Shown here in pieces: positions 1 through 50,167 of a stretch of DNA of 64,000 nt. A program made the translations under genes and the position numbers. The notes beneath the pieces were generated by a model. The model was not told the origin of the DNA. It saw only the letters and a list, made by a program, of their open reading frames with translations, and made no database searches. Origin of the DNA: Patescibacteria group bacterium (GTDB lineage: Bacteria > Patescibacteriota > Minisyncoccia > Phycocordibacterales > JBBTRF01); NCBI GenBank assembly GCA_038065315.1, contig JBBTRF010000001.1, positions 161,642-225,641 of the forward strand. The letters are read 5' to 3'. The first letter of the stretch is position 1. Every line of letters starts with the position of its first letter.

Positions 1-483
1 GTGAGCTCCTCTAATGCCTATTGGCACTACGGGAACGTGACCACGAACAGCATAGCGTGCGACGCCAGTGAAGGCAGGGAGCATGTTTTCCTTGTCCGGT
101 GACCGGGTACCTTCTGGGAAAATACCAATCATTTTTGCCTCACGAAGATGCTCAAATATGCGATTATGCAGGACTCTCTTATCGTGCACTTTTCTGTCCA
201 CTCGAATCTGGCGAGTAATCTTCATGATTGGCGACCAGAATAAATGATCGAAAAACTTTTCAGCCGAAAGAAAGTGTACGTTTCTATTTGAAACGCTCAC
301 GAAACAAAGGAAGTCGAAATAACTCTGGTGATTAAAAGCAACAATCACTGGGCCAGCTTTCGGTATATTATCAATTCCGACCACCTTTTTTATCCATATA
401 GCTTTGACAACGAATCCGACAGACTTTCGAATGCACCAATATAGGAAGTCGTGAATTTTATCGGAAACAGATCTAGAGCCCAT
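1..483 (-). CDS. 1-acyl-sn-glycerol-3-phosphate acyltransferase family protein (PlsC-like); N-terminal part only, gene runs off window start
   Basis: Hand translation of the minus strand from ATG at 483 gives MGSRSVSDKIHDFLYW...KAGPVIVAFNHQSYFDFLCF... and ...GIFPEGTRSPDK, i.e. the HX4D (NHQSYFD) and FPEGTR motifs of lysophospholipid acyltransferases. No stop codon before position 1, so it is absent from the ORF track. Confidence 0.6.
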   Translation of the reverse strand, partial: MGSRSVSDKIHDFLYWCIRKSVGFVVKAIWIKKVVGIDNIPKAGPVIVAFNHQSYFDFLCFVSVSNRNVHFLSAEKFFDHLFWSPIMKITRQIRVDRKVHDKRVLHNRIFEHLREAKMIGIFPEGTRSPDKENMLPAFTGVARYAVRGHVPVVPIGIRGAH

Positions 484-638: not shown

Positions 639-667
639 TTGACAGAAGTCGCACAGTCTTGTATATT
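639..667 (+). promoter_or_regulatory. sigma70-like promoter TTGACA-N17-TATATT upstream of the 736..3553 operon
   Basis: TTGACA at 639-644, 17-nt spacer, TATATT at 662-667, about 70 nt upstream of the ATG at 736 in a divergent intergenic region. Confidence 0.45.
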
Positions 668-735
668 TTGTCGGTCGTTTGCTGTATCTGTTGATATGCA
701 ACAGCGACTAAAAGGTTTTTAAACGTCAAAAAACA

Positions 736-2001
736 ATGTCCGACACCTCTCAGGATTCAGTTACTAGCGCGAAAAAGTACTTTAATCAGTTCTTCAAAAA
801 AGAACTTTACGGCACATTCAAGAGTGAAGTCAATTTAATTCTCAGTCGTGGTTCTTGGAATGAAAATTCCATACGATTTCCGAAGTTCTTTAAAACATGC
901 ATCGACATATCGCTAGAAAAACACTGGACGGGCTATTCTGACTCGCTTGGACATCGCTATGCAGTATCTGCCCTACGAAAGCTCCTGTCCTCGCATTGTA
1001 ATTACTCGGAAGATCAGATCGCTCTGACTCTTGGCAACAGCGTCACGATCGGAATCGTCTTTCAACAACTGTCTAGACAATTAGTTGGAGCAAAAGTACT
1101 CACACTAACTCCATACTACCCACCGATCCTGAGGTCAATTCACAATCATTTCCCGGACACTGTTTTCATTTCCTCATTAGGAGAGGAGAATGACATAATT
1201 GCGGAAATAAGAAAATCTGTTCTGGACAATCGAGTAAAGATTCTATTTCTCACGAATTTCATTGGTGTGGAAGGTAGAATCTTTTCAGAAAGATACTGGA
1301 AAGAAATTTTGCAGATTTCCAAGGAGTTCAATCTATTTTTGATCATTGACGAAGGCCTTGCTTTTACAGAAACAAATTATCCGAGGGAAATTAACCAGGA
1401 AAATGTAGTAAGAATCGTGAGTGTTTCAAAGAAATACGGGGTTCCTGGAATGAAATTCGGCTTCATCCTAGCCGATAAAGTTTTCATGGAAAATTTCTAT
1501 GAATCCGCGTCGACGAACTATGGTGGACCATCTAGTTTATTATTCCTTCTAAGTGAGTTTCTGTATCTTTTTGAATACATACTTAAATCGGGGGGCGATG
1601 CAGAAAATGAATTTAGGGAGCTTTCGAGAAAGTACTCTCTTTCTGAGGATGAGATTGCGGCATTGTTTAGTGATTATAAATCGGTGGTCGAATTGAACGA
1701 AAGACACTTTTCCGAAAACCTGCAGGCCGTTCGTGACTGGTACAGAAAAAATTCGAATTTATTCGAGCAAATTTTTGACTTTGGGGGTATCAATATACTA
1801 TTTAAACCCGATATTTCCTGCTCGTGTCACGAGCTTTTCTTGAGGGCAATTCGAGGGTACAATGTATCCGTACTTCCAGGCAAGTGCCTCGGTGATACGT
1901 CTGATACCTTATTCAGAGTCACCCTTCTAGAGCAGAAGGGTGACCAAGAAGAAGCTCTCGAGCGTTTATCAAAAATTATTAGAGAGAATACTAAAGAATG
2001 A
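736..2001 (+). CDS. PLP-dependent aminotransferase class I/II family protein
   Basis: SVSKKYGVPGMKFGF matches the S-x-S-K-x-x-G-x-x-G-x-R-x-G PLP-lysine motif; IIDEGLAF matches the D-E-x-Y/F region; NFIGVEG resembles the NPTG region. Stop overlaps the next start (ATGA at 1998). Confidence 0.6.
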   Translation: MSDTSQDSVTSAKKYFNQFFKKELYGTFKSEVNLILSRGSWNENSIRFPKFFKTCIDISLEKHWTGYSDSLGHRYAVSALRKLLSSHCNYSEDQIALTLGNSVTIGIVFQQLSRQLVGAKVLTLTPYYPPILRSIHNHFPDTVFISSLGEENDIIAEIRKSVLDNRVKILFLTNFIGVEGRIFSERYWKEILQISKEFNLFLIIDEGLAFTETNYPREINQENVVRIVSVSKKYGVPGMKFGFILADKVFMENFYESASTNYGGPSSLLFLLSEFLYLFEYILKSGGDAENEFRELSRKYSLSEDEIAALFSDYKSVVELNERHFSENLQAVRDWYRKNSNLFEQIFDFGGINILFKPDISCSCHELFLRAIRGYNVSVLPGKCLGDTSDTLFRVTLLEQKGDQEEALERLSKIIRENTKE

Positions 2002-2780
2002 AAAGGGACATCAAGGTTGTGTTCATAGATTTTGACGGAACACTTACAAACCAGGCAACAAACGAATTGACTGAAAAGCCTGACGAGCTTATTGATTCAC
2101 TGAAAAAGGCGGGTGCCGTGCCAGTTATTTCAACAGGAAAAGGGCTATATTTTATATATGACCTATTGGCCAATAAGCCCCGTTTGCTCGATGGTTATTT
2201 CATTCTTCACGACGGAGCCTTAGTATTGAATCCTTTCACTGGAGATATACTGCACTCTAATATTATGAGTGCGGAGATTGTTGGTGGTCTACTCGAAAAA
2301 CTGACAGCTATCACTCAAAATACATACCTGAATAAAGCAACCGGACTTTTCTCTGAACACAATTTACTTTCGAAAGACTCATCACTCTTTAAGTTTTGGA
2401 ATAAAACTCTGGATCATGAGGGAGTGTACCAGGTGTATGTTCGAGATATCCAGGAGTCACTGGTGACCACCATCAAGGACCTTGCAGATCACTTCGACCT
2501 AGAAATGTACTCATTCGCTAGTCGTCGTAATAGTAGAAGTTTAATGATTCACAACCGAACGAGTAATAAGGCTTGCGCGATAAAAAAAGTACTAGACAGA
2601 GGCGGATGGACCGAAAAAGAAGCGGCTGTGATTGGTGACGGAGTTAATGATCTACCTGCCTTTATGCTAGATGTATTTAAAATTGCCGCTAGTGATGCAA
2701 TTCCTGAGCTTAAGAACAAAGCGGATTTGGTGTTAGAAGTTGGTGAAAGAATTGATTCAACGATACTGAAACTCATATGA
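1998..2780 (+). CDS. HAD-superfamily hydrolase, subfamily IIB (Cof-like phosphatase)
   Basis: N-terminal FIDFDGTL (DxDGT motif I) and C-terminal GDGVNDLPAF (motif IV); length typical of the Cof family; ATGA overlap couples it to genes on both sides. Confidence 0.7.
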   Translation: MKRDIKVVFIDFDGTLTNQATNELTEKPDELIDSLKKAGAVPVISTGKGLYFIYDLLANKPRLLDGYFILHDGALVLNPFTGDILHSNIMSAEIVGGLLEKLTAITQNTYLNKATGLFSEHNLLSKDSSLFKFWNKTLDHEGVYQVYVRDIQESLVTTIKDLADHFDLEMYSFASRRNSRSLMIHNRTSNKACAIKKVLDRGGWTEKEAAVIGDGVNDLPAFMLDVFKIAASDAIPELKNKADLVLEVGERIDSTILKLI

Positions 2781-3553
2781 GATACAACCATGTTTTTCCA
2801 TCTCTAAAAATGCTACCCCTAGAACCAAAAGACGACCTTGTCTCGGTCTTGGAAAGGGACGGGGTTGTCCTGCTGAATGTCGGTGAAAGCTTTTCCAATA
2901 AAAGTTTTCTGGAACTAATGTGCAAAATCGGCACACCACTCAAAGAGTCGAACGTGGACGCTGCATATGTTGAAGACCTCTTTATTTTAAATGTCAGAAC
3001 CGACATTGATTCGAATATCTCGATGGAAAACGAGCCCTTCTCCATCGACGGGCTAAGAATGCATGTTGAAAGAGCCTTTGCTAATCAGACTGTACAACCA
3101 AACTTTATTGCCCTGCTGTGCAAGGTTTGTCCAGTGGATGAAAATGGAGGGCAGACGCTTATTTATAGAATGAGTGACTTCGTCAAGTGCTTTAGTGCGA
3201 ATGAATTGATGTTGATGAGAAAGATGTATCCAGTCTCAATGGACAGAAAAATTATTTCTGTGAATCCAATCTTGAGTTATGACCGAAGAAGAGGGTTTGA
3301 ATTTTTCTCGTACAGAGATTTAGGACAATATGGTAAGGATTGGCACGTTAAGGATGATCCCACCTTGAATGCACTGGATGTTTCCCTAGTCGCTAATAAA
3401 ATCGGTGAAGTTCTTGGAAGGCATGCCAACATCCGTGCCCTAGTATGGCGTCCTGGGTACCTATATATCTTCGATAATAAAAAAAGTTTTCATGGTAGGA
3501 CCGAACAAAAGCAGTCCCAGAAAAGACACCTCAAGAGAATTCGTGTTATTTAA
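2777..3553 (+). CDS. TauD/TfdA-like Fe(II)/2-oxoglutarate dioxygenase family protein (putative)
   Basis: MHVERAF (H-x-E/D metal dyad) followed by ALLCKVCPVDENGGQTLIY, which resembles the TauD PPxGGDTLFA segment; C-terminal FHGRTE resembles the distal His/Arg 2OG-binding motif. Start overlaps the upstream stop (ATGA). Confidence 0.45.
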   Translation: MRYNHVFPSLKMLPLEPKDDLVSVLERDGVVLLNVGESFSNKSFLELMCKIGTPLKESNVDAAYVEDLFILNVRTDIDSNISMENEPFSIDGLRMHVERAFANQTVQPNFIALLCKVCPVDENGGQTLIYRMSDFVKCFSANELMLMRKMYPVSMDRKIISVNPILSYDRRRGFEFFSYRDLGQYGKDWHVKDDPTLNALDVSLVANKIGEVLGRHANIRALVWRPGYLYIFDNKKSFHGRTEQKQSQKRHLKRIRVI

Positions 3554-3597
3554 AATACGCGCCCAAACTACTAGGGCGCGTATGGTTGGACGATAGA

Positions 3598-4671
3598 TTA
3601 AAATCGATTCGCTAATGAGGAAGCGAGTTGGGAAACAGTCAACGCCCTACCCTCTCTTAAGATGCGATGAGAGATTTGCTGTATGATGTTTTTCTGACGG
3701 TAGAGCATTGGCATCTCGGGGCCGAGTATTTCAATGTTTGCTCTCGGTGGCCCCGACAGTAGATGCTCAAGCTCGATGAGTCCTAGAGCCACCGAAGTTT
3801 TTTGAAGCTCTACTGATCTTAAACCCACTATTTGCGAATACTGATCAGCAAATGCGACAAGACCCTCTGTCAGCTTTTGTAGCCCGTTCCGATTAGCTGA
3901 CAGGAGTAGCCTCAACATGAACTTACCTAAGTCTACATGTGGAATACCTACGCACAGCTTCGGATCAAGAAGACAAACCGACTGGCCGTCGCGGATAATG
4001 TTACCGTCCTTACAGTCACCGTGCAGGAGATTCCTCATAGTCAAATGTGCTGAGACAAGCTCGACTATATTCGAATGAAGCCCTCTCGCAATCATTGGTT
4101 GCTGGAAATTCAAGTCCTCAATAATGAGTGAGTCTGAGGTCGCGCTTATCTGTCTAGGCTTGAGATTGTCCGGTGCCTCAGTTTGATGGAGGCGAGCAAT
4201 ACATTTTGCCAATCCTTCAGCGAACGACTTGTCAAAAGCACCTGGATCAATGCACTTCCCCGGGATTTTTTCGAGTATGACAACATTTGGTCCAACAAAC
4301 TCTAGAATTCTTGGGACCCGAAACGCTCTATCCCAAAGAAATCTGAGCGACCGAACCTCTATGACGATGTCGTTGCTGCATGGCATGTTGCCACCGTCAA
4401 GTGTCTTAGAAAAAACGCTCGGTCCAGCTGCTAAAAACTTTTCGTAGGCGAATAGCATGCTTCTTCCAAAAAGCCCTGCCTTCAAAATTGCCTCTCTGCC
4501 ATTAAAAGAGCATGTGAAGACGTAATTTACGTGACTAGAATCCACCATTCGCAGGTTGCGGACAAAAACCCCGTTCCTTTTGAGCAAGCCGACGAAGTAT
4601 TTGCTCACAATTGAGACAAACTGTCGTTGTGTTTTATTCACGGTTAGTCCTTTCGTAGGTTGTATTTTCAA
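3598..4671 (-). CDS. Phosphotransferase (APH/choline-kinase-like kinase fold) family protein
   Basis: LLHGDCKDGNIIRDGQSVCLLDPK fits the Brenner HGDxxxxN catalytic motif plus a downstream Asp; the size (357 aa) fits the family. Convergent with the 736..3553 operon. Confidence 0.5.
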   Translation of the reverse strand: MKIQPTKGLTVNKTQRQFVSIVSKYFVGLLKRNGVFVRNLRMVDSSHVNYVFTCSFNGREAILKAGLFGRSMLFAYEKFLAAGPSVFSKTLDGGNMPCSNDIVIEVRSLRFLWDRAFRVPRILEFVGPNVVILEKIPGKCIDPGAFDKSFAEGLAKCIARLHQTEAPDNLKPRQISATSDSLIIEDLNFQQPMIARGLHSNIVELVSAHLTMRNLLHGDCKDGNIIRDGQSVCLLDPKLCVGIPHVDLGKFMLRLLLSANRNGLQKLTEGLVAFADQYSQIVGLRSVELQKTSVALGLIELEHLLSGPPRANIEILGPEMPMLYRQKNIIQQISHRILREGRALTVSQLASSLANRF

Positions 4672-4800
4672 AACTGAGAAAATAATACATACCTATAATA
4701 AAAATGTCAAGGGCCCATGATGGTTGAATAGCTTGTATCTACTCAAGGGTATTGACCAGATTGTGCAGCTCGGTCTTGTCGGCCTAGGTAATAGTGCAAA

Positions 4801-5544
4801 TTACAGCATCTCCCCCACCCTCCCCATCACCTTGTTCGCTCCTGCGTGGAAGTCGTCGACAGTGGGACCAACGGAGCCTTTGCCGAGCTGTGGTGCCTGA
4901 GTCGGGCTGACGGGGCTTACGACTTCCTTTGGGAGCATTGGCGTGCCGTAGCGGATCACGACAGTGCGACGACGTAGAAAAAAGTCAGCGGCAGTGAGAT
5001 TGACCAAGCCTTTCATCGCCACTGGTACGACTGGCGCTTGAGCGGCGTGGGACAAGAAGGCGACGCCACCGCGTGCTGGGCCAATCTTGCCATTGGCAGT
5101 GCGGATGCCCTCAGGGAAAATACAGACGCAACGGCCACGCTGGGCCAGTGCGATGAAGTTTTGTAGCGAATACGCGTAATCGTGATGACCTGAATACACT
5201 GGATACGCTCCTGCAAGGTTGAACAAAATGCCGCCGTACAAATACCGCCGCCAGCCGGAGGCATCATAGAAATCCTTCTTTTGTGACACGTAGTACATCG
5301 GTGAGAACCGCCAAAAGAATGGCAGACCGACGCGTACCAGGGGCCCATCCCACTCGCTAGAATGGTTGGGTGCGAAGATCAATGCGACCGTCTTGCCTGC
5401 CGCCTTTTGGGCCTTCTGGAAGGCCAGGAGCTGCTCGACGCCTTCGTATCGAATGCGGCAAAACAACTTGAATACGACAAGGGCGAATACGTAGATGATG
5501 GCCTGCAAAAGGACAGGGATGACGGAAAAGAAGCGTTTTCTCAT
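4801..5544 (-). CDS. PlsC-family lysophospholipid acyltransferase (second paralog)
   Basis: N-terminal TM segment, NHSSEWD (HX4D motif) and FPEGIRT (block III motif). Confidence 0.65.
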   Translation of the reverse strand: MRKRFFSVIPVLLQAIIYVFALVVFKLFCRIRYEGVEQLLAFQKAQKAAGKTVALIFAPNHSSEWDGPLVRVGLPFFWRFSPMYYVSQKKDFYDASGWRRYLYGGILFNLAGAYPVYSGHHDYAYSLQNFIALAQRGRCVCIFPEGIRTANGKIGPARGGVAFLSHAAQAPVVPVAMKGLVNLTAADFFLRRRTVVIRYGTPMLPKEVVSPVSPTQAPQLGKGSVGPTVDDFHAGANKVMGRVGEML

Positions 5545-5603: not shown

Positions 5604-8600
5604 CTAGAACTCGTTGAGGTCCGGATTGGTACGAACGGTCACGGTGATTTCAGATACCGATTTTGGAGAACCTGTGAGTACGTTGACTCCCTTGGTGAAG
5701 ATCTTGAGGGTGTACTTGTAGACGCCCTCGGTGTTGAGCGGACCGCGGATCAAAATAGTCGGTGGAACAATAGAGCTGTAGGTCTGCTGTGAGAGTGCGT
5801 TTCCGGAAACACCAGAGCCTGCTGGACCGCTCTGAGTGATGAAGTAGACATCGTCTGTGTTGCCACCGGAGATACCGTAACGCATCGCCACCGCTCGGCC
5901 TTTCTGTGTTGTGACGGAAGATTTATAGGCACTCGCATCCGAAGGCGCGGCCGAATTATTTGTCGCGATTGGTGCCGCGCCGAAATTCACATTTGAATCG
6001 GTGTTTTCCTGAGGCACGGCTGGACAGCTGATGAGTTGCGAGCTGTTCACTGCCAACGAAGCATCGGAAACTGAGACAGTGACGAACTGGCCAGGCTGTG
6101 CTGCTTGTGTCGGAGGGGTACCTGTCCAGGTATATGAATTGGTCGTCTGGGAGATAGGAGAATGGAGCTCGGAGTCGGTACCTGTAGATCGAATCCAATT
6201 AAACTTGTATGGTTGGTTGCCCTTAAACGTACCATCCAGAGTCGCTGTCCATGTCCAGTCGCTACCGGCACGTGTCGGTGCCGCGCAAGTCAGACCAAGA
6301 ATACTCGAGGTTTCGCAGACGCCAATACACGAGGCGCCACCGCCGATGACTATATTATTGGCACCACCGCTGCCGCCGATTGGCAAAATCGTGACCGTAG
6401 CACTTGCCGATGCGGTGCGCGATCCCGAAGTGACGGTGAGTGTGCCGGTCTTTGTTCCTGCCGTAGGATAACTAGTGCTGGTGTTGGTATCGGAGCCCGA
6501 GATACTGCCATCACCAGACCACGCATAGGTACATGGGGTGTATCTCGCATCGCTACAACCATCCACGACAGATGCCCATGAGATTGCTTCGTTAACATAT
6601 GCAGTTGCCGGGCTAGCTGTGACTGCAACAGCTAGGTCAGGTGGCAGTGGATCAGGTTCTGGAGCAACACTGATCTCTGGACAGATAACAACAAGTGTTC
6701 GGCCGCCGGAAGAAACCGACACGTCTCCGTATTTAATACCGGGAGTCGTATACTTGTTCGATGCTGTGGAAGCATTCCCCTTCGGACCTTCAACATCAGA
6801 ACCAGACCATGTGTAGGTATATGCTCCGTTACCTCCGGCGACATTGGTTGTACGCCAAGTAGCGATTGCGCCAACCATCGGCGAGGTCGGCGCGACGCAG
6901 GTCGCTACGATATTTGGCTGCGGTGTCGGATCTGAAGGAACGAGAATACCGAAGTGGATCCAGCCGAGTACTGTGGAACCCCAAGCGTAGCCAGTATAAT
7001 GACGACTACCGTCGAGCTCTGTAATGATCTGCGCTCCATATGGACCAGCCGCCGTAATGCCGCCCAGACTGATCCAGCCGCTAAAACCACCCTTTGGATC
7101 CGGGTTCGATGCAGTATAGGTCGCTCCGCCGGTGTCGGAGCAGGTACTTGGATTCTGTGCGCCAGAACAGACACGCGCCCAACCGGTCATGCGGCCACTG
7201 AGAGGGTCCACTTTCGCATTGGTCTGTGTGGTACCTGGCGCGACAGTCGAATTCGGCATTGACGCTGTGTTCAGCCCACCAAATTTGATCCAACCAACAT
7301 TCGATGCCCAGACATAGCCGGTGAGGTTCCCATAAATGTCGCGATTCACTCCGTAATCACCACTTGGTGCGGCTTCATTAGTGCTACTGAAGCTCAACCA
7401 GCCGATCGTCGAAGACCACGCCCAGCCAGAGAGTGAAGTCGGGTTAGCGAAGGTCGGAGTATTGGCATCAACGTTCGGATTTGGTGGTGTATTTGGGTTT
7501 GGGGTAGGATTTGGCGGCGGAATAACTGGGGCTGGCGGATTGACCGTGAGCAACACCTGGATCGCACCAAGTGCTCTGCCGTTGTCATACAGAGCAAAGG
7601 CGAGCGGTGTTCCAACACCGGTCACGGTCGGTGCTGAGGGTGTAGCGGTAATGACAAGAGAAACATTGCAGGTCGGATTCGGAGTACAGGATGTTGGAGA
7701 GAATGAGTAACTAATGCCAACCGGTAGCTGCATCCCGGGCGCAGCGGTGAAGGTCACCGGCACGCTCGGCGCACCCGAGTTGTTGGTGATAAAGATCTGA
7801 GTATTGACACTCTCCCCCTTCACCACGGAGACATTATAGGAGTCGGTTTTGGAGACATTGAATGTCGACGGCATCGAAACGGTAAACGTAACCGTTAGAT
7901 CGGAGAGATTGACGTTTCCGTTCGTGTCGCGACAGCGAATTGAGTACGAACGACTCGTGCCATCGACAAGGCCCGTGATGGTAGCAGAATGGGTCATTCC
8001 TGTGTCCCACGCTGTGAAGTTATTGTTCATCGCCGAATAAGTAGTGTCGACTCCTGCGGCATATCTACAAGTCGCCACATCATTGGTTGTAATGGAAAGA
8101 TTCGCATTGATGGTACCCGCAGGGAGCAATACAGGGGTCACGTTCGGAGTGACTAGGGTGCGAATTGGGGCACCGGAACATTTGTTTTGATGAGTAGTGG
8201 TTGCTGATAAAAATACATCCGCTGTATTCAAAAGGCAATCTACACTTTTCCCCAAAGTATCCATGTTTCCAGTGACAGATACCCCGGAATTTTTATATTC
8301 AGCACCAGAAGTCAAAATCACCTTTCGCATAGAAAAATAACGATAACTTTCTTGTAGTAGATTTGTTGATTGATTGAAACGACTATCAAAAATATTGTCA
8401 GAAATTTCTAGCCCCTCAACCTCTGTAATCAATAGTGCAGAATTTTGAAATTCCCCTATCGGACTTGAGATAAACCTAATATCATTATTGGCGACACGAA
8501 AATTCTTCAATTCTCGTGCATACGTACTTGGCGGGTAATACAAAGAATCGCTCGGATTAAACAGGTTACGGATAATTCGAATACCTGCTCGTGCACCTTC

Positions 8601-9923
8601 ATTCACAGGAACGAGAGTTATCTCATTATTGTGAATGTTATAGCCAATCTTTTTGAAATTTGGCAATCGATCTACAAAAATATCTATACCACGAGACACA
8701 CCTAAAAAGTGATTATTGTATATTTCGAGATTATAATCCTGCCACCAGTCAGAGTAATATCCCGCAGCAATATTTTCGCCAATATTATTAAACACTTTTC
8801 CACCATATGTGTGGTGTACCGAATATCCTTGGAAAGCGCTATCTTCGCCATTTACGCCAGTAAAGCGAATAGTGTTGTTCGCAATAACCGAGCGATTCAT
8901 AAAGACGTCCTTGCGCGACGTGTGCGCAGGATCATCGTTCGTACCATTAGAATTCCAAGAGCCGGTAATGTTAAAAACAGTTGACAGACCTTGCCTATTC
9001 CTCAATGAGGAATGTAGGTTGCTCTCCTCATAAACAGAGTTGACAATTCGAGAACAGTGAACGTCGGTCGTATCTCCAGTACAGGAGGCATTGTATCTCA
9101 CATTTGGATCAGCGACGCCATGTTCAGAAAGGAGCAGCAAGATTCCAAAAGATTCTGTCCCGCCGGTTCCATAATAATTGCCAATATTTTTTAATCTAAT
9201 ACCATCTGCAAAATTTCCTTCTCCGAACAACTGAACACCGTGTATCCTCGTCCTGTTTTCAGGCACAGCTTTATTGAACGGAGCCGAGTTAAACTTCTCA
9301 ACCAGAGTCGAGTAATTGGCATCGATGGTCAGATTCTTGATACCCTCCGCACTTGGAACCGCCCTCACGCCACCAACCCATTTGTATCCATCACCCACAA
9401 TCACCGAAATATCTGCCAATCTCATTTTGCTGCTTGCAGTAAATCTCGCGTCATCGAGCTTGATAATCGTCCCGTCCCGAGATTCTCCCACGATAGATGC
9501 GTTGCTTGGCAAAGTCCACTGAGGGAGGCAGCCGTTCGAAGTGCCACAGGTGTTGTTGGTAGAAAAACCAGCCGTAAGGTACGTGCCATTTTTCAAATGT
9601 ATTACCAATTTTGTATCTGACGGCTTGTCCTTAAGGGCATAATTTGCACTATTCACGCCCAATATGTTGGACATGACATAATCAATGCTTCCCATCGGCG
9701 CGCCGTATGGATTACCAACACTACCATCTCCACCAAAGACGGAAGGATCGGTAAAGGCGGCGCCCGCTACTTTTACATACACATCAACAAGAGTAGTGTT
9801 TGCAGGCGTTGGACTTTGCGCAAATAGAGACGACCCGAAAAAAATTACGCCAATAAAAAGAAAAATCCCACCAACGCCACAGAGTTTCCATAGTCGCATA
9901 CAGTGAATTATACAGCACAGCAA
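5604..9923 (-). CDS. Giant secreted/cell-surface protein (1439 aa): signal/TM anchor, right-handed parallel beta-helix region, Pro-rich linker, GW-type tandem repeats, Ig/PKD-like Ser/Thr-rich C-terminal region
   Basis: N-terminal hydrophobic segment LFIGVIFFGSSLFAQSP; many N-x-[ST]/NN..I repeats typical of pectate-lyase-like beta-helices (NNTIRF, NNDIRF, SDNIFD); PPAPVIPPPNPTPNPNTPPNPN linker encoded near 7470-7545; four GWI/LxF repeats; long T/S/G-rich C-terminus. Confidence 0.7.
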   Translation of the reverse strand: MLCCIIHCMRLWKLCGVGGIFLFIGVIFFGSSLFAQSPTPANTTLVDVYVKVAGAAFTDPSVFGGDGSVGNPYGAPMGSIDYVMSNILGVNSANYALKDKPSDTKLVIHLKNGTYLTAGFSTNNTCGTSNGCLPQWTLPSNASIVGESRDGTIIKLDDARFTASSKMRLADISVIVGDGYKWVGGVRAVPSAEGIKNLTIDANYSTLVEKFNSAPFNKAVPENRTRIHGVQLFGEGNFADGIRLKNIGNYYGTGGTESFGILLLLSEHGVADPNVRYNASCTGDTTDVHCSRIVNSVYEESNLHSSLRNRQGLSTVFNITGSWNSNGTNDDPAHTSRKDVFMNRSVIANNTIRFTGVNGEDSAFQGYSVHHTYGGKVFNNIGENIAAGYYSDWWQDYNLEIYNNHFLGVSRGIDIFVDRLPNFKKIGYNIHNNEITLVPVNEGARAGIRIIRNLFNPSDSLYYPPSTYARELKNFRVANNDIRFISSPIGEFQNSALLITEVEGLEISDNIFDSRFNQSTNLLQESYRYFSMRKVILTSGAEYKNSGVSVTGNMDTLGKSVDCLLNTADVFLSATTTHQNKCSGAPIRTLVTPNVTPVLLPAGTINANLSITTNDVATCRYAAGVDTTYSAMNNNFTAWDTGMTHSATITGLVDGTSRSYSIRCRDTNGNVNLSDLTVTFTVSMPSTFNVSKTDSYNVSVVKGESVNTQIFITNNSGAPSVPVTFTAAPGMQLPVGISYSFSPTSCTPNPTCNVSLVITATPSAPTVTGVGTPLAFALYDNGRALGAIQVLLTVNPPAPVIPPPNPTPNPNTPPNPNVDANTPTFANPTSLSGWAWSSTIGWLSFSSTNEAAPSGDYGVNRDIYGNLTGYVWASNVGWIKFGGLNTASMPNSTVAPGTTQTNAKVDPLSGRMTGWARVCSGAQNPSTCSDTGGATYTASNPDPKGGFSGWISLGGITAAGPYGAQIITELDGSRHYTGYAWGSTVLGWIHFGILVPSDPTPQPNIVATCVAPTSPMVGAIATWRTTNVAGGNGAYTYTWSGSDVEGPKGNASTASNKYTTPGIKYGDVSVSSGGRTLVVICPEISVAPEPDPLPPDLAVAVTASPATAYVNEAISWASVVDGCSDARYTPCTYAWSGDGSISGSDTNTSTSYPTAGTKTGTLTVTSGSRTASASATVTILPIGGSGGANNIVIGGGASCIGVCETSSILGLTCAAPTRAGSDWTWTATLDGTFKGNQPYKFNWIRSTGTDSELHSPISQTTNSYTWTGTPPTQAAQPGQFVTVSVSDASLAVNSSQLISCPAVPQENTDSNVNFGAAPIATNNSAAPSDASAYKSSVTTQKGRAVAMRYGISGGNTDDVYFITQSGPAGSGVSGNALSQQTYSSIVPPTILIRGPLNTEGVYKYTLKIFTKGVNVLTGSPKSVSEITVTVRTNPDLNEF

Positions 9924-9948: not shown

Positions 9949-11106
9949 CTACATCCCCTCTTTTTTCAATTCTTCGATCGCTTTCTTGGCCGCCTTCGAG
10001 AGGTGTTTCGGCATTTCGATGGAGATCTTCACAAAAAGATCACCGCGGCGGTTTTTGCTCCCGCCGATCGGCACGCCGCGCCCCTTTACACGAAGTTGTT
10101 CGCTGTGAGTGATACCGGCCGGGATGCTGAGTTGGATATCGCCATCGAGCGTGGTAAATGTTTTCACTGCACCGAGAAGTGCTTCGGAAAGCTTAATACC
10201 GAGCGAGGCATGTAAGTCGGCGCCATCGCGCTCAAAAAGCGGGTGCGGCACGACGTGGATCTTCACGTAGAGATCGCCAGAAGAGCCGGTGCCGCCGCCA
10301 GCCAGTGTTTCGCCCTTGCCGGCCATGCGGAGCATCTCGCCGTCGTTGATGCCAGCCGGAATGACTACCTCGAGATTCTCCTGCCTGTCGTACACGCCTG
10401 CACCGCGGCAGATCTTGCATTTTTCCTTTGGTATCGTACCTTTCCCAGCACAGGTTGGGCAAGTGGCTGTGGTACTCACATTGCCGAGGAAGGTGCGGCG
10501 CACCTCTTGTACCTTGCCGCGTCCTTTGCAGGTGTCACAGGTCTCGATTTTTGTTCCCGGCTCGCCCCCTGTGCCATTGCAATGGTCGCATGCCGCAGTG
10601 CGACTAAAACGTAGCTCACGAATAGAGCCGAAGACAGCATCCTTGAACGGAATTTCGATATCGATCGACATATCGCGGCCCTTCTGACTGCGACCGCGGC
10701 CACCTCGTGCGCCTCCTGCCCCGCGCCCGCTTGAACCGCCAGTGCCGAAAATATCGCCAAAGATATCGCCAATGTCGAATTCGATGTTCTGCGAGCCACC
10801 GAAGCCTTGGGTGAATTGCGAAAAATCAAAGCCATCGAAACCACCGGCTTGGCCACTGAAGGGATTACCTCCTCCGCCGGAGCCTCCACCAAAACCTGGG
10901 CCCGACGAACCAAATCGGTCGTATTGTGCACGCTTCGCATCGTCCGACAAGGTCGAATACGCCTCATTTGCTTCTTTGAAGCGCGCCTCGTTGCCACCCT
11001 TCTTGTCTGGGTGATGTTCATGCGCGAGCTTACGGAACGCCTGCTTGATCTCGTCTTTCGAGGCACTCTTTTCGACTCCGAGTGTTTTGTAATAGTCTTT
11101 TGACAT
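9949..11106 (-). CDS. dnaJ: Chaperone DnaJ (J domain, G/F-rich region, 4x CxxCxGxG zinc finger, C-terminal domains)
   Basis: MSKDYYKTLGV...HHPDK J-domain; Gly/Phe-rich segment; CDHCNGTG, CDTCKGRG, CPTCAGKG, CKICRGAG repeats. Start chosen at the internal Met with a DnaJ-typical N-terminus (ATG at 11106); the ORF track starts 8 codons earlier. Confidence 0.9.
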   Translation of the reverse strand: MSKDYYKTLGVEKSASKDEIKQAFRKLAHEHHPDKKGGNEARFKEANEAYSTLSDDAKRAQYDRFGSSGPGFGGGSGGGGNPFSGQAGGFDGFDFSQFTQGFGGSQNIEFDIGDIFGDIFGTGGSSGRGAGGARGGRGRSQKGRDMSIDIEIPFKDAVFGSIRELRFSRTAACDHCNGTGGEPGTKIETCDTCKGRGKVQEVRRTFLGNVSTTATCPTCAGKGTIPKEKCKICRGAGVYDRQENLEVVIPAGINDGEMLRMAGKGETLAGGGTGSSGDLYVKIHVVPHPLFERDGADLHASLGIKLSEALLGAVKTFTTLDGDIQLSIPAGITHSEQLRVKGRGVPIGGSKNRRGDLFVKISIEMPKHLSKAAKKAIEELKKEGM

Positions 11107-11199
11107 TTTAGATTTTTTGAACCTTGACACTATACCATACGGTGTGTAACTATTCTATTCAGTCAGTTGTTTTAGAGGGTTGGCTTCAGAAAGGAAGCC

Positions 11200-11529
11200 G
11201 TGGTGTCCCGAACAATACACCTAGCATCGTTAATCATGATCGTCATCTTGAAAGACCGGAGACTTTTCGCCATCCAGTGCCTCGTCTCAATTGCAATCAT
11301 GCTGAGCGCATATCTCGAGCCGAGGTATTTTGCGATAACCTTTGGCGCTTGGTTCCTGTTCTGCCTGCTGATTCTGCTCGTTTACACAATCAGCACGCCT
11401 GCCGAAGACCTGTTGGGGCTCAAGCATGAGATGCAATTCATCGTGCTGTTTGGCACCCCGATAATCATCCTCGGAATCACGAAGGCTCTTTTTACCATAA
11501 GGCGAACGGACGCCGCACCTAAGACCTGA
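11200..11529 (+). CDS. Small multi-pass membrane protein, hypothetical
   Basis: 109-aa ORF with three hydrophobic helices, in the divergent gap between dnaJ and dnaK, followed by a hairpin plus T-run. Confidence 0.35.
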   Translation: MVSRTIHLASLIMIVILKDRRLFAIQCLVSIAIMLSAYLEPRYFAITFGAWFLFCLLILLVYTISTPAEDLLGLKHEMQFIVLFGTPIIILGITKALFTIRRTDAAPKT

Positions 11530-11544
11530 TCGCGTTATCTACCT

Positions 11545-11625
11545 CACTCCCCTCCTCCATTATCTCCACGACTCAGTCTTTGTACTAGGTCATGGAGAGT
11601 AGGAAGAGGGGGGTTTTTTTATTTT
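11545..11625 (+). terminator. Putative rho-independent terminator (G/C-rich imperfect hairpin followed by GGGGGGTTTTTTTATTTT)
   Basis: CTCCCCTCCTCC...GGAGAGTAGGAAGAGGGGGG followed by a T7 run, immediately downstream of the 11200..11529 ORF. Confidence 0.35.
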
Positions 11626-11669
11626 CTGATTTTCAGGAGCCTAGTGGAGAGGTGTCTGCGGCCATTTTT

Positions 11670-11730
11670 GAGTAGGTGCGGATTTATCATACTTTTCTCA
11701 TACTTTCGTATGAAAAATCCGATACTACTC
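11670..11730. repeat. Palindromic intergenic element, copy 1 (GAGTAGGTGCGGATTTATCATAC...GTATGAAAAATCCG...TACTC), just downstream of dnaK
   Basis: Shares inverted arms CGGATTT(T/A)TCATAC / GTATGAAAAATCCG and internal TTTTCTCATAC units with the copies at 14191-14249 and 62817-62887. Confidence 0.6.
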
Positions 11731-11760
11731 TTTTTCGCTGCGCCACCCCGGCTGCTTCAG

Positions 11761-13698
11761 CTATTTCTTCTCCCCATCTTTACCGCCTTCCTTGAACTCC
11801 GCATCGCGGACTGGGCCGTCAGCATCTTTCTTGTCGCCCTGCGCAGTGTCGGCCCTTGAGGCCTCGCCGTTTGCTCCGGCGCCTGCCGCGCCCGCACCAG
11901 CCTTGCTCATCGCCTCGCCAACTTTGGAGAGCTCGGTCGAGAGAGCTTCGGTTGCGCTCCTGATCTTCGCAAGATCAGCACCATCTTTCACCTGCTTGAG
12001 GTCAGCGGTCTTGTCCTCGACACCCTTGCGGACATCAGCAGGCACTTTATCGCCCGCATCCTTGAGCGCCTTCTCGCTGGTGTAGATCATCTGCTCGGCG
12101 ACATTTTTTGCCTCGACTGCCTCACGCTTCTTCTGGTCGTCAGCACTGTGCATTTCCGCATCCTTCTGCATCTTCGCGACCTCTTCCTTGCTCAGGCCGG
12201 AGCTTGCGGTAATCTTGATCGAGTTCGACTTGCCGGTGGTCTTGTCCTTGGCAGTCACATTCAAGATACCATTGGCATCGATGTCAAAAGACACCTCCAC
12301 CTGCGGCATACCGCGAGGAGCCGGTGGAATACCGTCGAGAGTGAACTTGCCGAGCGACTTGTTGTCCGCCGCCATAGCACGCTCGCCCTGAGTGATGTGG
12401 ATTTCCACAGAGGTTTGATTGTCCGCCGCGGTCGAGAACACCTGAGACTTCTGTGTCGGGATAGTAGTGTTCTTCTCGATGAGCTTCGTCGCGACGCCAC
12501 CCATAGTTTCAATGCCGAATGAAAGTGGGATCACGTCGAGCAAGAGCACGTCCTTCACGTCGCCGGCGAGAATACCGCCCTGAATAGCGGCACCGATCGC
12601 CACGACTTCGTCTGGGTTCACTCCCATGTGGAGCTCCTTTCCGAAGAAGGCCTTCACCGCTGCGAGCATGGCTGGCATACGAGTCTGCCCACCCACCATC
12701 ACCACTTCGTTGATATCGGCCACCTTGAACGGCGATGCTTCCATCGCACGCTTGGTGATCATCATTGCTCGATCGATGAATTCTCGAGTGAGAACCTCGA
12801 GCGTTGATCGGGTCATAGTCTTCACGAGGTGCTTCGGGCCGTCACTGCCAGATGAGATGAACGGAATGTTGATCTCGGTCTGCACCGCGGTGGAGAGCTC
12901 GATCTTGGCCTTTTCTGCGGCCTCGTCGAGTCGCTGCACTGCCAAGGGATCCCTCATGAGGTCGATACCGTTTTCCTTCTTGAAATCATCCGCGAGCCAT
13001 TTGATGATCTTCTGGTCGATGTCTTTTCCGCCCAAGTGCGCGTCACCGTCGGTGGACTTCACCTCCACGAGGTCGGCGCCCACTTCGAGCACGGAGATGT
13101 CGAAGGTACCGCCTCCGAAGTCGAAGACGACGATCTTTTCATCCTTCTTTTTGTTGAAGCCGTATGCGAGGGCGGCTGCGGTCGGCTCGTTGATGATACG
13201 CATCACTTCGAGGCCGGCGATCTTGCCTGCGTCCTTGGTGGCCTGTCGCTGTGCGTCGTTGAAGTATGCCGGGACGGTGATGACGGCCTGAGTCACCTTC
13301 TCGCCGAGTCGCGCTTCCGCGTCGGTCTTGAGTTTGGTGAGGATCATGGCCGAGATCTCCTCCGGTCGGAGCCATTTGTCGGCCATTTTCACTTCCACAC
13401 CACCGTTCGCAGACTTCTGCACTTCAAAAGGCACCGATGCCTTGTCTTTTTGCACCGCGTCTTCGTCAAATGTGTGTCCGATGAAGCGCTTGATCTGGAA
13501 GACGGTGTTCTTTGGGTTGGTGACAGCTTGTCGCCGCGCAAGGAGGCCGACGAGTCGGTCGCCGGTCTTTGATTGAGCGACAATAGATGGAGTGGTGCGC
13601 GCACCCTCGGCATTTTCGAGGATCTTCGGGCTGCCCGCTTCCATCACCGCGACTGCTGAGTTGGTGGTACCGAGGTCGATACCGATGATTTTTGACAT
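11761..13698 (-). CDS. dnaK: Chaperone DnaK (Hsp70)
   Basis: [30 protein letters not shown] and the EEVD-less C-terminus; 645 aa, full-length Hsp70. Confidence 0.95.
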
Positions 13699-13772
13699 GG
13701 GTTAATTTGCGTTAAAAACGTGATAAAGGATTTCTAAAATCCGAATGAACGGGGTGTGAAATCGAATTCAGC

Positions 13773-14153
13773 TTAAAACGCAAAGGACGGCGCGCGGGTC
13801 GGTTGGCTTTTGAGGATCGCCTTGATGGCGAGATGTGGATAGACGACAGACTCGAGCTGGAGAGATTTTACAAATTCAAAGACAGCAAGCTCGACAGGTG
13901 CTGGGAGTGCTTGGACAGCAGCTGTATTTGACGCACCGGAAACAACATCACCAAAGGCAAAGGCTTCAGCTGCCTCGATCGGGGTGGCAGAAAGGAGTTT
14001 TACGCGTACCTGACCCTGATACTCCACCACCAAAAATCGGGCACGAACAAAGCCGCCAGCCCGTGTTTTCAGGACTTTTTCGATGATATTTTGCTGTGGA
14101 GCGAGGGTCAACATCGGACTGCTATTATACCAGAAATATGGAGGAGTCAACAT
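13773..14153 (-). CDS. Hypothetical protein between grpE and dnaK
   Basis: 126-aa ORF in the operon position where some bacteria carry a small regulator; no recognisable motif; the true start may be the internal Met at about 14114. Confidence 0.35.
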   Translation of the reverse strand: MLTPPYFWYNSSPMLTLAPQQNIIEKVLKTRAGGFVRARFLVVEYQGQVRVKLLSATPIEAAEAFAFGDVVSGASNTAAVQALPAPVELAVFEFVKSLQLESVVYPHLAIKAILKSQPTRAPSFAF

Positions 14154-14190
14154 ATTCGACTGAACAGAAGGTTGGTGGTGCAGCGGAAAA

Positions 14191-14249
14191 GAGTACCTTC
14201 GGATTTTTCATACAAAGTATGAGAAAGTATGAAAAATCCGCACCTACTC
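14191..14249. repeat. Palindromic intergenic element, copy 2 (GAGTACCTTCGGATTTTTCATACAAAGTATGAGAAAGTATGAAAAATCCGCACCTACTC), downstream of grpE
   Basis: Near-perfect inverted repeat; its right arm is the exact reverse complement of copy 1's left arm. Confidence 0.6.
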
Positions 14250-14308
14250 AAAAACACTGACGGACACCCCACCCCTCGCACTACGAACTACACCTTTGTG
14301 ACAAGAGA

Positions 14309-14932
14309 TTACTTCTTCACCTCCCCCACCTTCACCTTCGGCGGACGGACCACGCGGTCGCCGAGCTTGTATCCTTTGTTGATGACAGCGACAACTTTGC
14401 CATCCTGTGATTTTTCGTCTACCTCCACCATCTCTATCGCCTCCTGCTCGAGCGGGCTGTAGTCGGCGCCGAGGGGGTTGAGTTCGGAGAGGCCGTTTTT
14501 CTGCAAGATACCTAGGATCTGCGCCTGAATATGCTCGACGCCCATGCGCCAATTCTTGTCCACCTTTTCCCAAGCCTCTTTGTTGGCACGAGCCATGTCG
14601 AAGCTGTCGAGCACTGGCAAGATGTCGAGGATGAGCTCCTCGTTCGCGTACTTCACGAGCTCCTTCTGGCGCTCCTCGTCGCGCTTGCGCGCATTTACCA
14701 TGTCGGCCTTGGTGCGCTGCCAGCCAGTGAGATAGTCGAGCTTCTCGGCTTCACACTTCTTGAGCTTGTCGCGCAAGTCTTTCAGCTTGGCCTGGGAGCC
14801 CTTCTCGATGCCTTCTTCGTTGGTGTCCACTACATCATCTGTATCGCCAGAATTTGCGTCTGCCTTGCCAGCAGCCGTCGGCTCAAAAGTTACATCATCC
14901 TGATCGTTTTTCATATTTTTAGTGTCGTCCAT
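14309..14932 (-). CDS. grpE: Nucleotide exchange factor GrpE
   Basis: Acidic N-terminus, long coiled-coil region, and C-terminal ...MVEVDEKSQDGKVVAVINKGYKLGDRVVRPPKVKV typical of the GrpE beta-domain. Confidence 0.85.
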   Translation of the reverse strand: MDDTKNMKNDQDDVTFEPTAAGKADANSGDTDDVVDTNEEGIEKGSQAKLKDLRDKLKKCEAEKLDYLTGWQRTKADMVNARKRDEERQKELVKYANEELILDILPVLDSFDMARANKEAWEKVDKNWRMGVEHIQAQILGILQKNGLSELNPLGADYSPLEQEAIEMVEVDEKSQDGKVVAVINKGYKLGDRVVRPPKVKVGEVKK

Positions 14933-16704: not shown

Positions 16705-17682
16705 TTATTTTAATGAAATGCCGTACTTGTTCAAGAACTTCTTGATCTCCTGTACGCCCTTGCTGCCAAGGCCGTCGATATCGAGAATGTCCTCCTCCTT
16801 CTTGCGAACCAAGCCGCCGAGGGTTCGAACATTTGCACTGGTGAGCGCATTGAGGGTTCGAGGTGAAAGGTCGAGAGTCTCGATGCGGGTCTTCAAAAGC
16901 TCTGGATCAATCTCCTTCTTTGAAGACTTCTCTGAGGCCTCCTCAGCGTCAGCCTTCGCTGCTCGCTCCTCTGCTGGTGCAATCTCCTCTTCCTTGAATC
17001 CGACAATCGCCTTGAGCTGCTCGATCATGGTCACAATAGACTGTTCAAGCGCCTCGTGAGGGGTGACGGTACCATCGGTCTCAATAAAGAGCTTGATTCG
17101 GTTGAAATCAGTACGGTTGCCGACTCGCATGTTCTCCACTTCGTAGTTCGCACGCTTGATTGGGGTGAAAATGGCATCCAGAGCGATAGCACCTATGTCT
17201 ACGCGCTCCTTCTGGATAACTTCCTTTGGGACGTAACCAAGACCCTTCTGGGCAGTGATCTCAATTTCCAAAGTGGTGTTCTTGTCGGTGACAGATGCAA
17301 TGTGCTGATCTTTGTTCACGATGACCACCTGGCCCGGAGCCTCGATGTCGGCGCCCGTCGCATTCTTCACACCCTTCACGCGGAGGGTCATGGTCTGAGG
17401 CTCATCGCTCAAAAGCTGGATGCGAATCTTCTTGAGGTTCAAGAGAATAGTGATGACGTCCTCTTTCACTCCTTCGATAGTTGAAAACTCGTGAGAAACG
17501 CCAGTGATCTTCACTGAAGTGATCGCTGCACCTGGAAGAGACGACAAGATGATGCGTCGAAGTGAGTTGCCGAGAGTATGTCCGTATCCTGGGTACAATC
17601 CATCAATTTCGTAGATGCCAACAGAACCATCTTCTTTGATGATTCGAGGCTTTGATGGAAGTACGATAGTCTGATCAGTCAT
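16705..17682 (-). CDS. rpoA: DNA-directed RNA polymerase subunit alpha
   Basis: [24 protein letters not shown] N-terminal domain motif; C-terminal domain with [22 protein letters not shown] HhH. Confidence 0.95.
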   Translation of the reverse strand: [325 protein letters not shown]

Positions 17683-49865: not shown

Positions 49866-50167
49866 TCCCTAATCCATATATCATCATTAATGAAATTACC
49901 ACTATCATCCACATAGCCTTTATTCTTAAGACCGATCATAATTAATTCTGGTGATAAAGTAGACTTATCGAAAAATTTGATATCCTCCTCCTTTTCCTCT
50001 CTGCATTCTTTCTGAAGAGTAAGTTTTAAATTCACTAGATTTTCACCATCTTGCTTTTCAATCATATATTTTTGTTTACTAACTTCTGTAGAATAATAGA
50101 AACCACCCAATATACATGCTGCAATTATAATTCTCCAAGATACTGGTAGTTTATTTAATTTATTCAT
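49832..50167 (-). CDS. Small secreted/lipoprotein-like hypothetical (island)
   Basis: Signal segment with a lipobox-like IAAC; Glu/Lys-rich mature region. Confidence 0.4.
   Translation of the reverse strand: MNKLNKLPVSWRIIIAACILGGFYYSTEVSKQKYMIEKQDGENLVNLKLTLQKECREEKEEDIKFFDKSTLSPELIMIGLKNKGYVDDSGNFINDDIWIRDCVERKLEIIK

Follow-up and report, generated by a model that had tools for sequence, protein, structure and literature searches.

A four-gene cassette in a Patescibacteria genome resembles a minimal SbzP/SbzQ-type pathway building on NAD

Introduction

SbzP, the pyridoxal 5'-phosphate (PLP)-dependent [3+2]-annulating enzyme of the altemicidin/SB-203208 (sbz) cluster, fuses S-adenosylmethionine (SAM) and nicotinamide adenine dinucleotide (NAD) into an azaindane dinucleotide, which SbzQ hydroxylates at C2; SbzP and PseP both act by a gamma-elimination that releases 5'-methylthioadenosine (MTA) from SAM (PMC13518217, PMC13351049, PMC9516700, PMC11685415; these reviews and later open papers are our sources for the functions of SbzP, SbzQ and PsePQ). 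In PseP, residues F413 and Y418 on the N-terminal helix position the nicotinamide riboside (PMC13351049). PsePQ is a Pseudomonas fusion of an SbzQ-like Fe(II)/2-oxoglutarate (2OG) oxygenase domain with an SbzP-like PLP domain, and ADP-ribose removal in the sbz pathway is the task of SbzN/O/H. Here we compare these systems with a cassette of four genes, encoding a PLP enzyme, a haloacid dehalogenase (HAD) phosphatase, an Fe(II)/2OG dioxygenase and a small-molecule kinase, which lies in a stretch of 64,000 nucleotides from a Patescibacteria group bacterium (contig JBBTRF010000001.1, positions 161,642 to 225,641 of the forward strand; this whole stretch is called the window).

Clusters with SbzP homologues, termed NAD-derived biosynthetic gene clusters (NAD-BGCs), have been published from Actinobacteria, Chloroflexi, Proteobacteria and Cyanobacteria (PMC9516700). 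A 2026 review, which mentions '>200 genomes and metagenomes', knows of only one family of NAD-derived natural products, namely altemicidin, SB-203207 and SB-203208. The published NAD-BGCs carry paralogues of aminoacyl-tRNA synthetases (aaRS) as presumed resistance genes, and Patescibacteria are not among the NAD-BGC phyla named in the open literature. To our knowledge, NAD serves as a carbon building block for no reported PLP enzyme other than those of the SbzP type, and the Patescibacteria, which are ultra-small and largely symbiotic, have been credited with almost no secondary metabolism.

The reading that we favour, with a probability of roughly 0.55, is that the cassette would be a minimal SbzP/SbzQ-type NAD-BGC with a kinase and HAD tailoring pair, carried by ultra-small groundwater Patescibacteria. 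An earlier note on the window had taken the same genes for a kinase-aminotransferase/decarboxylase-phosphatase-hydroxylase toolkit that would suit the making or tailoring of a small phosphorylated amine or amino-alcohol. That these genes form one functional unit is upheld by the analysis below, whereas the small phosphorylated amine is better replaced by a predicted pathway of the SbzP/SbzQ type that starts from NAD and SAM.

Relation of the PLP enzyme to SbzP and PseP

Comparison of the PLP enzyme with all PDB sequences by phmmer gave one outstanding match, in which residues 401-809 of PsePQ (8k3h) align with residues 8-412 of the query at an E-value of 2.6e-39, against 4e-8 for the next entry. 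The identity to PseP is 28.7% over 415 aa. An exhaustive hidden Markov model (HMM) search of 1.84 billion representatives returned only 68 proteins at E <= 1e-30, and the scores fall into three tiers: a short form to which the window protein belongs, here called CPR-type (after the candidate phyla radiation), at more than 500 bits; SbzP-type proteins of 470-900 aa, SbzQ-SbzP-type fusions of the PsePQ kind among them, at 120-263 bits; and generic aminotransferases at 106 bits or less. The motifs F[ND]xxFxxD[LV][YH]G, GYS[DH]S[LR]G[RH] and SxSK...PGxKxG are present in both the CPR-type and the SbzP-type tiers and are missing from the generic aminotransferases, and in a neighbour-joining tree the PLP enzyme groups with the SbzP clades, apart from the latter. 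Its relation to SbzP/PseP thus exceeds that to any other class I/II PLP enzyme. The single outstanding PsePQ match, the tiers, the motifs and the tree together lead us to file the protein as a predicted new short clade of the SbzP family and not as an aminotransferase.

The placement in the class I/II superfamily given by the earlier note stands, since Pfam returns Aminotran_1_2 (3e-13), but its aminotransferase/decarboxylase role does not survive the PsePQ match and the replacement of a diagnostic arginine. Throughout the family a lysine of the PGxKxG motif (Lys240 in the window protein) occupies the position where ordinary class-I enzymes have the arginine that binds the PLP phosphate. The protein falls short of the strict description of class I/II aminotransferases on both counts, the curated cut-off and the arginine of SxSKxxxxxGxRxG, and passes only the broad Pfam superfamily model. 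All its NCBIfam matches lie far below their cut-offs; those of the CobD, HisC, GntC and VioD type reach 30-67 bits against 276-415, and the PDB matches of this type have E-values from 2e-5 to 3e-3.

To compare individual residues, the PseP segment was rebuilt from the printed alignment and aligned with 40 CPR-type sequences and the SbzP-type proteins P0048 and P0049. The PLP lysine (PseP K629, window K232) is invariant in all 43 aligned sequences. Six contacts of PseP with beta-NAD and SAM have been published, and three of them are identical in the window protein: F413 (F20), Y418 (Y25) and Y699 (Y300), all invariant in the CPR-type family. A fourth, D462, is kept as D69 at a variable position, where most of the family have D and the others H, N or S, F457 is conservatively replaced by a tryptophan (W64) that is invariant in the CPR-type family and also present in the classical P0048 and P0049, and R466 is replaced by a histidine (H73), which is found in all 40 CPR-type sequences and hence in 40 of the 43 aligned. 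The residues whose aromatic side chains stack on nicotinamide and adenine are conserved in the CPR-type family.

With SbzP/PseP (PDB 8k3h/8k3i) the window protein shares the fold-type I architecture, the catalytic lysine, the lysine of PGxKxG, an alignment over the full length, the Phe and Tyr of the N-terminal helix that contact the nicotinamide riboside, the GYSDSLG loop and the equivalent of Tyr699. It differs from SbzP in being about 100 residues shorter at its N-terminus (421 vs 523 aa), and the CPR-type enzymes differ from SbzP/PseP in forming a clade of their own with His for Arg466. Unlike in PsePQ, the fusion partner, where there is one, is a HAD phosphatase and not a dioxygenase.

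Outside the CPR-type clade, the R466 position is likewise a histidine in a clade of SbzP-type proteins that are long, with 520-746 aa (P0063, P0088, P0092, P0095, P0096, P0101 and P0106-P0112; loci L027, L029 and L035). These come from Cytophagales, Alphaproteobacteria and Rhodospirillaceae metagenome-assembled genomes (MAGs), carry the motif FDxFFRxD[VL][HY]G and have C-terminal extensions without a Pfam match.

Relation of the dioxygenase to SbzQ

The dioxygenase was regarded in the earlier note as the weakest assignment, and Pfam alone gives it modest support, since TauD (4.5e-7) is matched by the last 48 residues only, at 30.5 bits against a cut-off of 27. The family to which it belongs comprises only 8 clusters of about 256-265 aa with 43-56% identity (word-indexed search), and H96, E98, T127, H239 and R250 are invariant in the 8 homologues, leaving the HxE...H...R site intact. 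Searched against the PDB, the family profile finds the N-terminal SbzQ-like domain of PsePQ at 1.8e-21, followed by IsnB at 4.6e-13 and PvcB at 2.2e-8. The same profile matches the N-terminal domains of three other SbzQ-SbzP-type fusions (1e-22 to 1e-29) and, at E 4e-15, the TauD gene of L019, a cluster of the classical SbzP type. The AlphaFold2 (AF2) model (mean predicted local distance difference test score, pLDDT, 74) has the TauD, AtsK and PvcB fold in Foldseek at a template modelling score (TM) of about 0.6. On the grounds of the invariant residues and the predicted fold, the dioxygenase assignment is now firm, and its closest relationship is to SbzQ-like sequences.

The gene adjoins the PLP gene in 8 of the 8 family members whose context was seen, and its product is predicted to be the hydroxylase of the product of the PLP enzyme. 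With SbzQ, PseQ and the N-terminal domain of PsePQ it has in common the TauD-family fold, the HxE...H triad, the distal Arg and the position beside, or fused to, an SbzP-type gene. It differs from SbzQ in length (258 vs 304 aa), and the identity to the PsePQ SbzQ-like domain is only 26% over 237 aa. In contrast to the sbz cluster, which has no such kinase, the dioxygenase family of the window always has a kinase of the aminoglycoside phosphotransferase (APH) fold as a partner.

Synteny and distribution of the cassette

The PLP enzyme, the dioxygenase and the kinase occur together in all 6 distinct loci and the HAD phosphatase in 5 of the 6, co-occurrence figures that rest on small numbers (the metagenome scan gave 7 loci). 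In the window and in L038 all four are separate genes, the kinase gene being convergent in the former and on the same strand in the latter. L010 and L037 have a PLP-HAD fusion (691 and 682 aa, respectively), a dioxygenase and a convergent kinase gene, and L011-13 have the PLP enzyme, the dioxygenase and a kinase on the same strand, with the HAD phosphatase absent. L009, a locus of a 474-kb contig, has frameshifts in its PLP and HAD genes and an intact dioxygenase and kinase. At least 5 proteins (P0010, P0011, P0013, P0015 and the L037 protein) are fusions with the PLP enzyme in front and the HAD phosphatase at the C-terminal end, a Rosetta-stone link between the two. Because the genes recur together in unrelated contigs and the PLP enzyme and HAD phosphatase are fused in several of them, the conclusion that the four genes are one functional unit holds. 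The synteny proposed in the earlier note is thus borne out for the four core genes and fails for the flanking PlsC genes, which tblastn found in no other locus (L009-L038).

The CPR-type gene is rare. A scan of 185,579 species genomes gave no more than 10 loci, 7 with the CPR-type gene and 3 with distant SbzP-type genes, and the former 7 belong to Paceibacterota, Shapirobacteria, Saccharibacteria, Peribacteria, a Patescibacteria group bacterium and two unclassified MAGs. The dioxygenase protein is encoded on two identical contigs, Hain_H52 and Hain_H41, and in the MAG GCA_964355935.1 on a contig of 256 kb.

In the CPR-type PLP loci that have no dioxygenase (L014, L016/L020, L021, L023 and L026), neither the kinase nor this HAD phosphatase was found. 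The partners there are GlutR_N-like and nucleotidyltransferase-like proteins, NUDIX, a Zeta-toxin/AAA_33 kinase and two adjacent paralogues of the glutamyl-/glutaminyl-tRNA synthetase (GluRS/GlnRS) type. The NUDIX, P-loop kinase and duplicated aaRS genes fit nucleotide tailoring and the theme of aaRS resistance in NAD-BGCs.

The commonest CPR-type arrangement (L014/L015, 8001-16068; L021, L026 and L030) consists of the PLP gene followed by genes for a 256-aa protein without a Pfam match and for GlutR_N-like and nucleotidyltransferase-like proteins; the L014 example adjoins the two GluRS/GlnRS-type paralogues, recalling the aaRS 'resistance' genes of NAD-BGCs. The 256-aa protein was considered as a divergent dioxygenase and rejected (hhalign probability 0.5%). 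Another arrangement (L016/L020, 8001-12905) combines the PLP gene with GlutR_N/Shikimate_DH-like, glyoxalase-like, Zeta-toxin/AAA_33 P-loop kinase and NUDIX hydrolase genes, a set of enzymes that would suit cutting and re-phosphorylating a dinucleotide.

Kinase and phosphatase

Active-site motifs are intact in all four proteins of the cassette. The kinase matches APH (PF01636) at 1.4e-8 and 35.2 bits against a cut-off of 23.2, and K54, H207-G-D209-x-K-x-x-N214 and D226 show no variation among 4 distinct sequences. Its AF2 model has a pLDDT of 84, and Foldseek gives a fold probability of 1.00 with fructosamine-3-kinase-like proteins, methylthioribose (MTR) kinase, choline kinase, AmiN, PsiK and homoserine kinase II on top, at a TM of about 0.5 and 11-17% identity. 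The APH/choline-kinase fold named in the earlier note is therefore right. With the amicoumacin kinase AmiN, fructosamine-3-kinase, the MTR kinase MtnK and PsiK, hydroxyl kinases of small molecules that act on natural products or sugars, the protein shares the fold and the catalytic set of Lys, HGDxKxxN and Asp, but it has no specific sequence relationship to any of them. Three clusters of the kinase family were found by the word-indexed search, in addition to the members recovered from cassette loci, and the family appears to be confined to this cassette. As the target of the kinase we predict a hydroxyl of the pathway product. A role as MTR kinase, salvaging the by-product MTA, was considered and rejected, the match being marginal and the kinase following the dioxygenase and not the PLP enzyme.

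The HAD-IIB protein is matched by Hydrolase_3 (2.4e-25) over 244 of the 255 profile positions, and the DxDGT (D11, D13) and GDGxND motifs can be read in its translation, in agreement with the phosphatase proposed earlier. Its match to the Cof subfamily model TIGR00099 (E 8.6e-25) scores 87.8 bits, under the cut-off of 137, and the subfamily assignment is therefore loose. The nearest solved structures are generic sugar-phosphate phosphatases.

Proposed pathway and alternative explanations

In the pathway that we propose, the PLP enzyme would join a SAM-derived C4 unit to the nicotinamide of NAD, and its product would be an amino-acid dinucleotide of the 6-azatetrahydroindane type. The dioxygenase would hydroxylate the new ring of this product, for which SbzQ offers a precedent at C2. 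The kinase would phosphorylate a hydroxyl of the product, and since the kinase tracks the dioxygenase rather than the PLP enzyme, the most economical target would be the hydroxyl that the dioxygenase installs; alternatively, the kinase may protect the cell from the hydroxylated product, as kinases of the AmiN type do. The HAD phosphatase would remove a phosphate at or next to the PLP step; this phosphate could sit on a precursor, on a nucleotide intermediate or on the phosphorylated product, in the last case with activation or recycling as the purpose. As the cassette has no gene for ADP-ribose removal, the product may remain a (di)nucleotide. We infer the substrates, the product, the order of kinase and phosphatase and the role (antimetabolite, signal or modified cofactor) from homology.

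The cassette resembles the published NAD-BGCs in having an SbzP-type gene as gatekeeper with variable tailoring genes around it, and in the aaRS paralogues beside some related CPR loci (L014). It is unlike them in its size of only four genes, without SbzN/O/H, GNAT, carrier proteins, methyltransferase or transporter, in its tailoring set of a kinase and a HAD phosphatase and in its host.

Several observations weigh against the SbzP/SbzQ-type reading. Beyond the absence of an SbzN/O/H counterpart and a transporter, the cassette has neither an acyltransferase nor a dedicated resistance gene. The kinase is without a close characterised relative (the best PDB profile match is MTR kinase, E 3e-3), and the HAD phosphatase is generic. 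The PLP enzyme is only about 29% identical to PseP and lacks the stretch of 60-125 residues found ahead of the NAD-binding helix in SbzP-type proteins. R466, which is His in the whole CPR-type clade, contacts the adenine and diphosphate of NAD and is important for SAM binding. In the published work on PsePQ a separate PseQ was added to the preparation for hydroxylation, and similarity to the Q-domain therefore does not prove hydroxylase activity. Finally, the PLP and HAD genes of L009 are each split by a frame change next to an intact dioxygenase and kinase (as also in L024 and L032), and several assemblies of the organism agree in this, which points either to a locus in decay or to a dioxygenase and kinase that can act without the PLP enzyme.

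The systematic exchange of R466 for His, together with the absent N-terminal extension, means that the acceptor or the donor could be different, and this is the point from which the least improbable of the alternatives starts, one that we nevertheless consider unlikely. It keeps the enzyme families and a vinylglycine-type or related quinonoid but changes the donor and/or the acceptor, so that the product would not be the azaindane dinucleotide of SbzP; the donor could be O-phosphohomoserine supplied by the APH-fold kinase, and the acceptor NMN, NaAD, NADP (the mononucleotide, the nicotinic acid analogue and the phosphate of NAD, respectively) or a different electrophile. Such chemistry is consistent with a kinase fold family that includes type II homoserine kinase as well as MTR kinase, with the fused phosphatase, which hints at a phosphorylated substrate or product in the PLP step, and with the several quite different neighbourhoods occupied by CPR-type PLP genes. 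It is opposed by the conservation of the nicotinamide- and adenine-stacking aromatics and of Y699, and of an aspartate here at the D462 position, where the family has D, H, N or S. The histidine is not unique to the CPR-type clade, being shared with the long SbzP-type proteins described above, and the kinase follows the dioxygenase and is absent from PLP loci without one, which makes it an unlikely supplier of the donor.

The remaining alternatives give the PLP enzyme an altogether different task. LipL and LipO of nucleoside antibiotics convert an alcohol to an amine, and by a similar logic the kinase would make a phosphate ester, the TauD-type enzyme would hydroxylate the carbon of the ester, so that phosphate leaves and an aldehyde remains, and the PLP enzyme would transaminate the aldehyde. 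The strict co-occurrence of dioxygenase and kinase would suit this scheme, as would the ester-cleaving AtsK and Rv3406, the top Foldseek matches of the dioxygenase model. These fold matches are generic (TM about 0.6, 13-16% identity), however, the profile favours the SbzQ-like domain by eight orders of magnitude, and the PLP enzyme bears the signature of SbzP and not that of a transaminase, so that we consider the scheme very improbable. No more credit can be given to the lipid proposal of the earlier note, in which a phosphorylated amine or amino-alcohol, made by CobD/PduX-, HisC/HisB- or LicA-like enzymes, would become an unusual head group through the flanking PlsC acyltransferases. Both flanking genes do encode PF01553 Acyltransferase proteins, as that note had claimed, the Pfam families of the cassette fit, the left PlsC gene lies in the same low-GC stretch as the cassette and the PLP enzyme has weak NCBIfam matches to CobD and HisC. 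Yet the two PlsC proteins are only 24% identical, neither has a counterpart in other cassette loci, the GC content of the right one is host-like, and the CobD and HisC matches amount to 31-35 bits against cut-offs of 276-290, with PDB CobD at 2.3e-5 against 2.6e-39 for PsePQ. The head-group reading is thereby largely refuted. Least probable of all, in our judgement, is a cyclic arginine-derived amino acid made along the lines of VioC/VioD or GntC/GntD, the kinase then conferring resistance. The best NCBIfam match of the PLP enzyme is indeed GntC, with VioD lower down, and the dioxygenase has faint matches to GntD; the scores, however, reach only 66.6 bits where the cut-off is 415, and 13 bits where it is 345, the class I/II-fold entry 8fft is reached at E 0.003 as compared to 2.6e-39 for PsePQ, and no non-ribosomal peptide synthetase or other consumer of such an amino acid lies nearby.

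The SbzP/SbzQ-type reading can be extended to the proposal that a horizontally mobile four-gene cassette turns NAD and SAM into a hydroxylated and phosphorylated azaindane-type nucleotide, a new class of NAD-derived metabolite. This extension is tentative, and we would not expect it to hold in full. If it is true, the cassette would be the simplest known setting for chemistry with NAD as a building block, with a tailoring logic of kinase and phosphatase that is absent from the sbz cluster, and the CPR-type clade with His for Arg would be a distinct minimal branch of SbzP, with the HAD fusion as its hallmark. Phosphorylation and dephosphorylation would then act as a built-in switch of self-protection and activation, and the metabolite might be an antimetabolite or a signal used against or with hosts. 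Such a pathway would be a concrete example of specialised metabolism in organisms whose host interactions are poorly understood. As for annotation, the labels 'pyridoxal phosphate-dependent aminotransferase' and 'phosphotransferase' that these proteins bear in MAGs are misleading.

Organisation of the locus

The coordinates of the cassette and of its surroundings are given in Table 1. The list of open reading frames (ORFs) and the sequence agree with the positions, the three-gene operon and the convergent kinase gene described in the earlier note, as well as with its promoter site and its ATGA overlaps of four bases, at 1998-2001 between the PLP and HAD genes and at 2777-2780 between the HAD and dioxygenase genes.

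Table 1. Coordinates and GC content of the cassette, of its candidate signals and of other features of the window
Feature	Position	Strand	Size	GC	Remark
Left PlsC	1-483	-	226 aa in source contig	0.44	ORF cut by window edge
Sigma-70-like promoter candidate	639-667	+			TTGACA-N17-TATATT; 11/12 consensus match only
PLP enzyme, SbzP-like short CPR-type form (predicted)	736-2001	+	421 aa	0.40
Cof-type HAD-IIB phosphatase	1998-2780	+	260 aa	0.41
SbzQ-like Fe(II)/2OG dioxygenase (predicted)	2777-3553	+	258 aa	0.42
Candidate bidirectional terminator	3556-3582	.			Perfect 9-bp GC-rich inverted repeat TACGCGCCC-N9-GGGCGCGTA
APH/choline-kinase-fold small-molecule kinase	3598-4641	-	347 aa	0.47	From GTG at 4641
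Sigma-70-like promoter candidate for kinase gene	4682-4710	-			TTGACA-N17-TATTAT; 11/12 consensus match only
Right PlsC	4801-5544	-	247 aa	0.56	Host-like GC
Giant ORF	5604-9923	-	1439 aa	0.54	Faint PKD-domain match only
DnaJ, DnaK, GrpE cluster	9949-14932
RpoA	16705-17682
Second low-GC island	50000-54500			0.36	Surroundings about 0.51
RloB-like protein	51289-51882
AAA_21/AAA_15 ATPase	51812-53002
tRNA gene	54404-54476	-			Only tRNA gene of the window
Rest of window				0.50

The promoter candidate of the operon lies 69 bases 5' of the start codon of the PLP gene, in the divergent gap between the left PlsC gene and the operon. The second candidate, upstream of the kinase gene, is absent from the earlier note. 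Promoter-like sites are no more frequent in total (9) than in shuffled sequences (7.6), and therefore only the placement of these sites, and not their number, is suggestive. The inverted repeat lies in the gap of 44 bases that separates the dioxygenase gene from the convergent kinase gene and is a candidate bidirectional terminator; the terminator scan did not list it because its plus-strand side is without a T-run. The kinase ORF stays open back to a TTG at 4671 (3598-4671, 357 aa), while the GTG at 4641 is the start used by gene callers and homologues and has AAAGGA a few bases upstream, so that the shorter form is probably the gene.

Composition and surroundings

The four genes of the cassette are poorer in GC than the rest of the window (Table 1) and belong to a low-GC stretch at about 5.4-12.0 kb of the source contig (L001), which comprises an upstream HAD-IB gene, the left PlsC gene and the cassette. 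The cassette of L009 is GC-poor too (0.37, against 0.43-0.46 in its flanks). The low GC content at both places suggests that the cassette was acquired horizontally, which we regard as probable. A search for flanking direct repeats or att-like repeats around the low-GC island gave none that was convincing; the only repeat common to both flanks codes for FPEG, a motif conserved between the two PlsC genes. Viral contigs scanned with the PLP and dioxygenase alignments yielded no relative, and no PADLOC model of anti-phage defence matched any of the four cassette proteins.

Upstream of the cassette, in a stretch immediately left of where the window begins (L001, 6363-7707), the left PlsC gene overlaps the HAD-IB (PF12710) gene, with a histidine kinase gene beyond, all of them low in GC. 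The pair of left PlsC and HAD-IB genes was not found beside the cassette in other genomes. Histidine kinase genes lie upstream of the cassette both here and in L011, but a specific link through them was rejected, their similarity (38%) being only the generic one of the catalytic domain.

To the right, the GC content of the giant ORF falls to 0.37-0.42 at about 8000-9000, and a 1039-aa PKD-like protein is encoded near the cassette of L009. The chaperone cluster directly right of the giant ORF and the RpoA gene after it are a housekeeping context, which confirms the chromosomal setting. A second and stronger low-GC island lies far from the cassette, beside the tRNA gene. Its ATPase gene overlaps the gene of the RloB-like protein and is accompanied by ORFs without a Pfam match, and this region looks like an integrated defence-type island.

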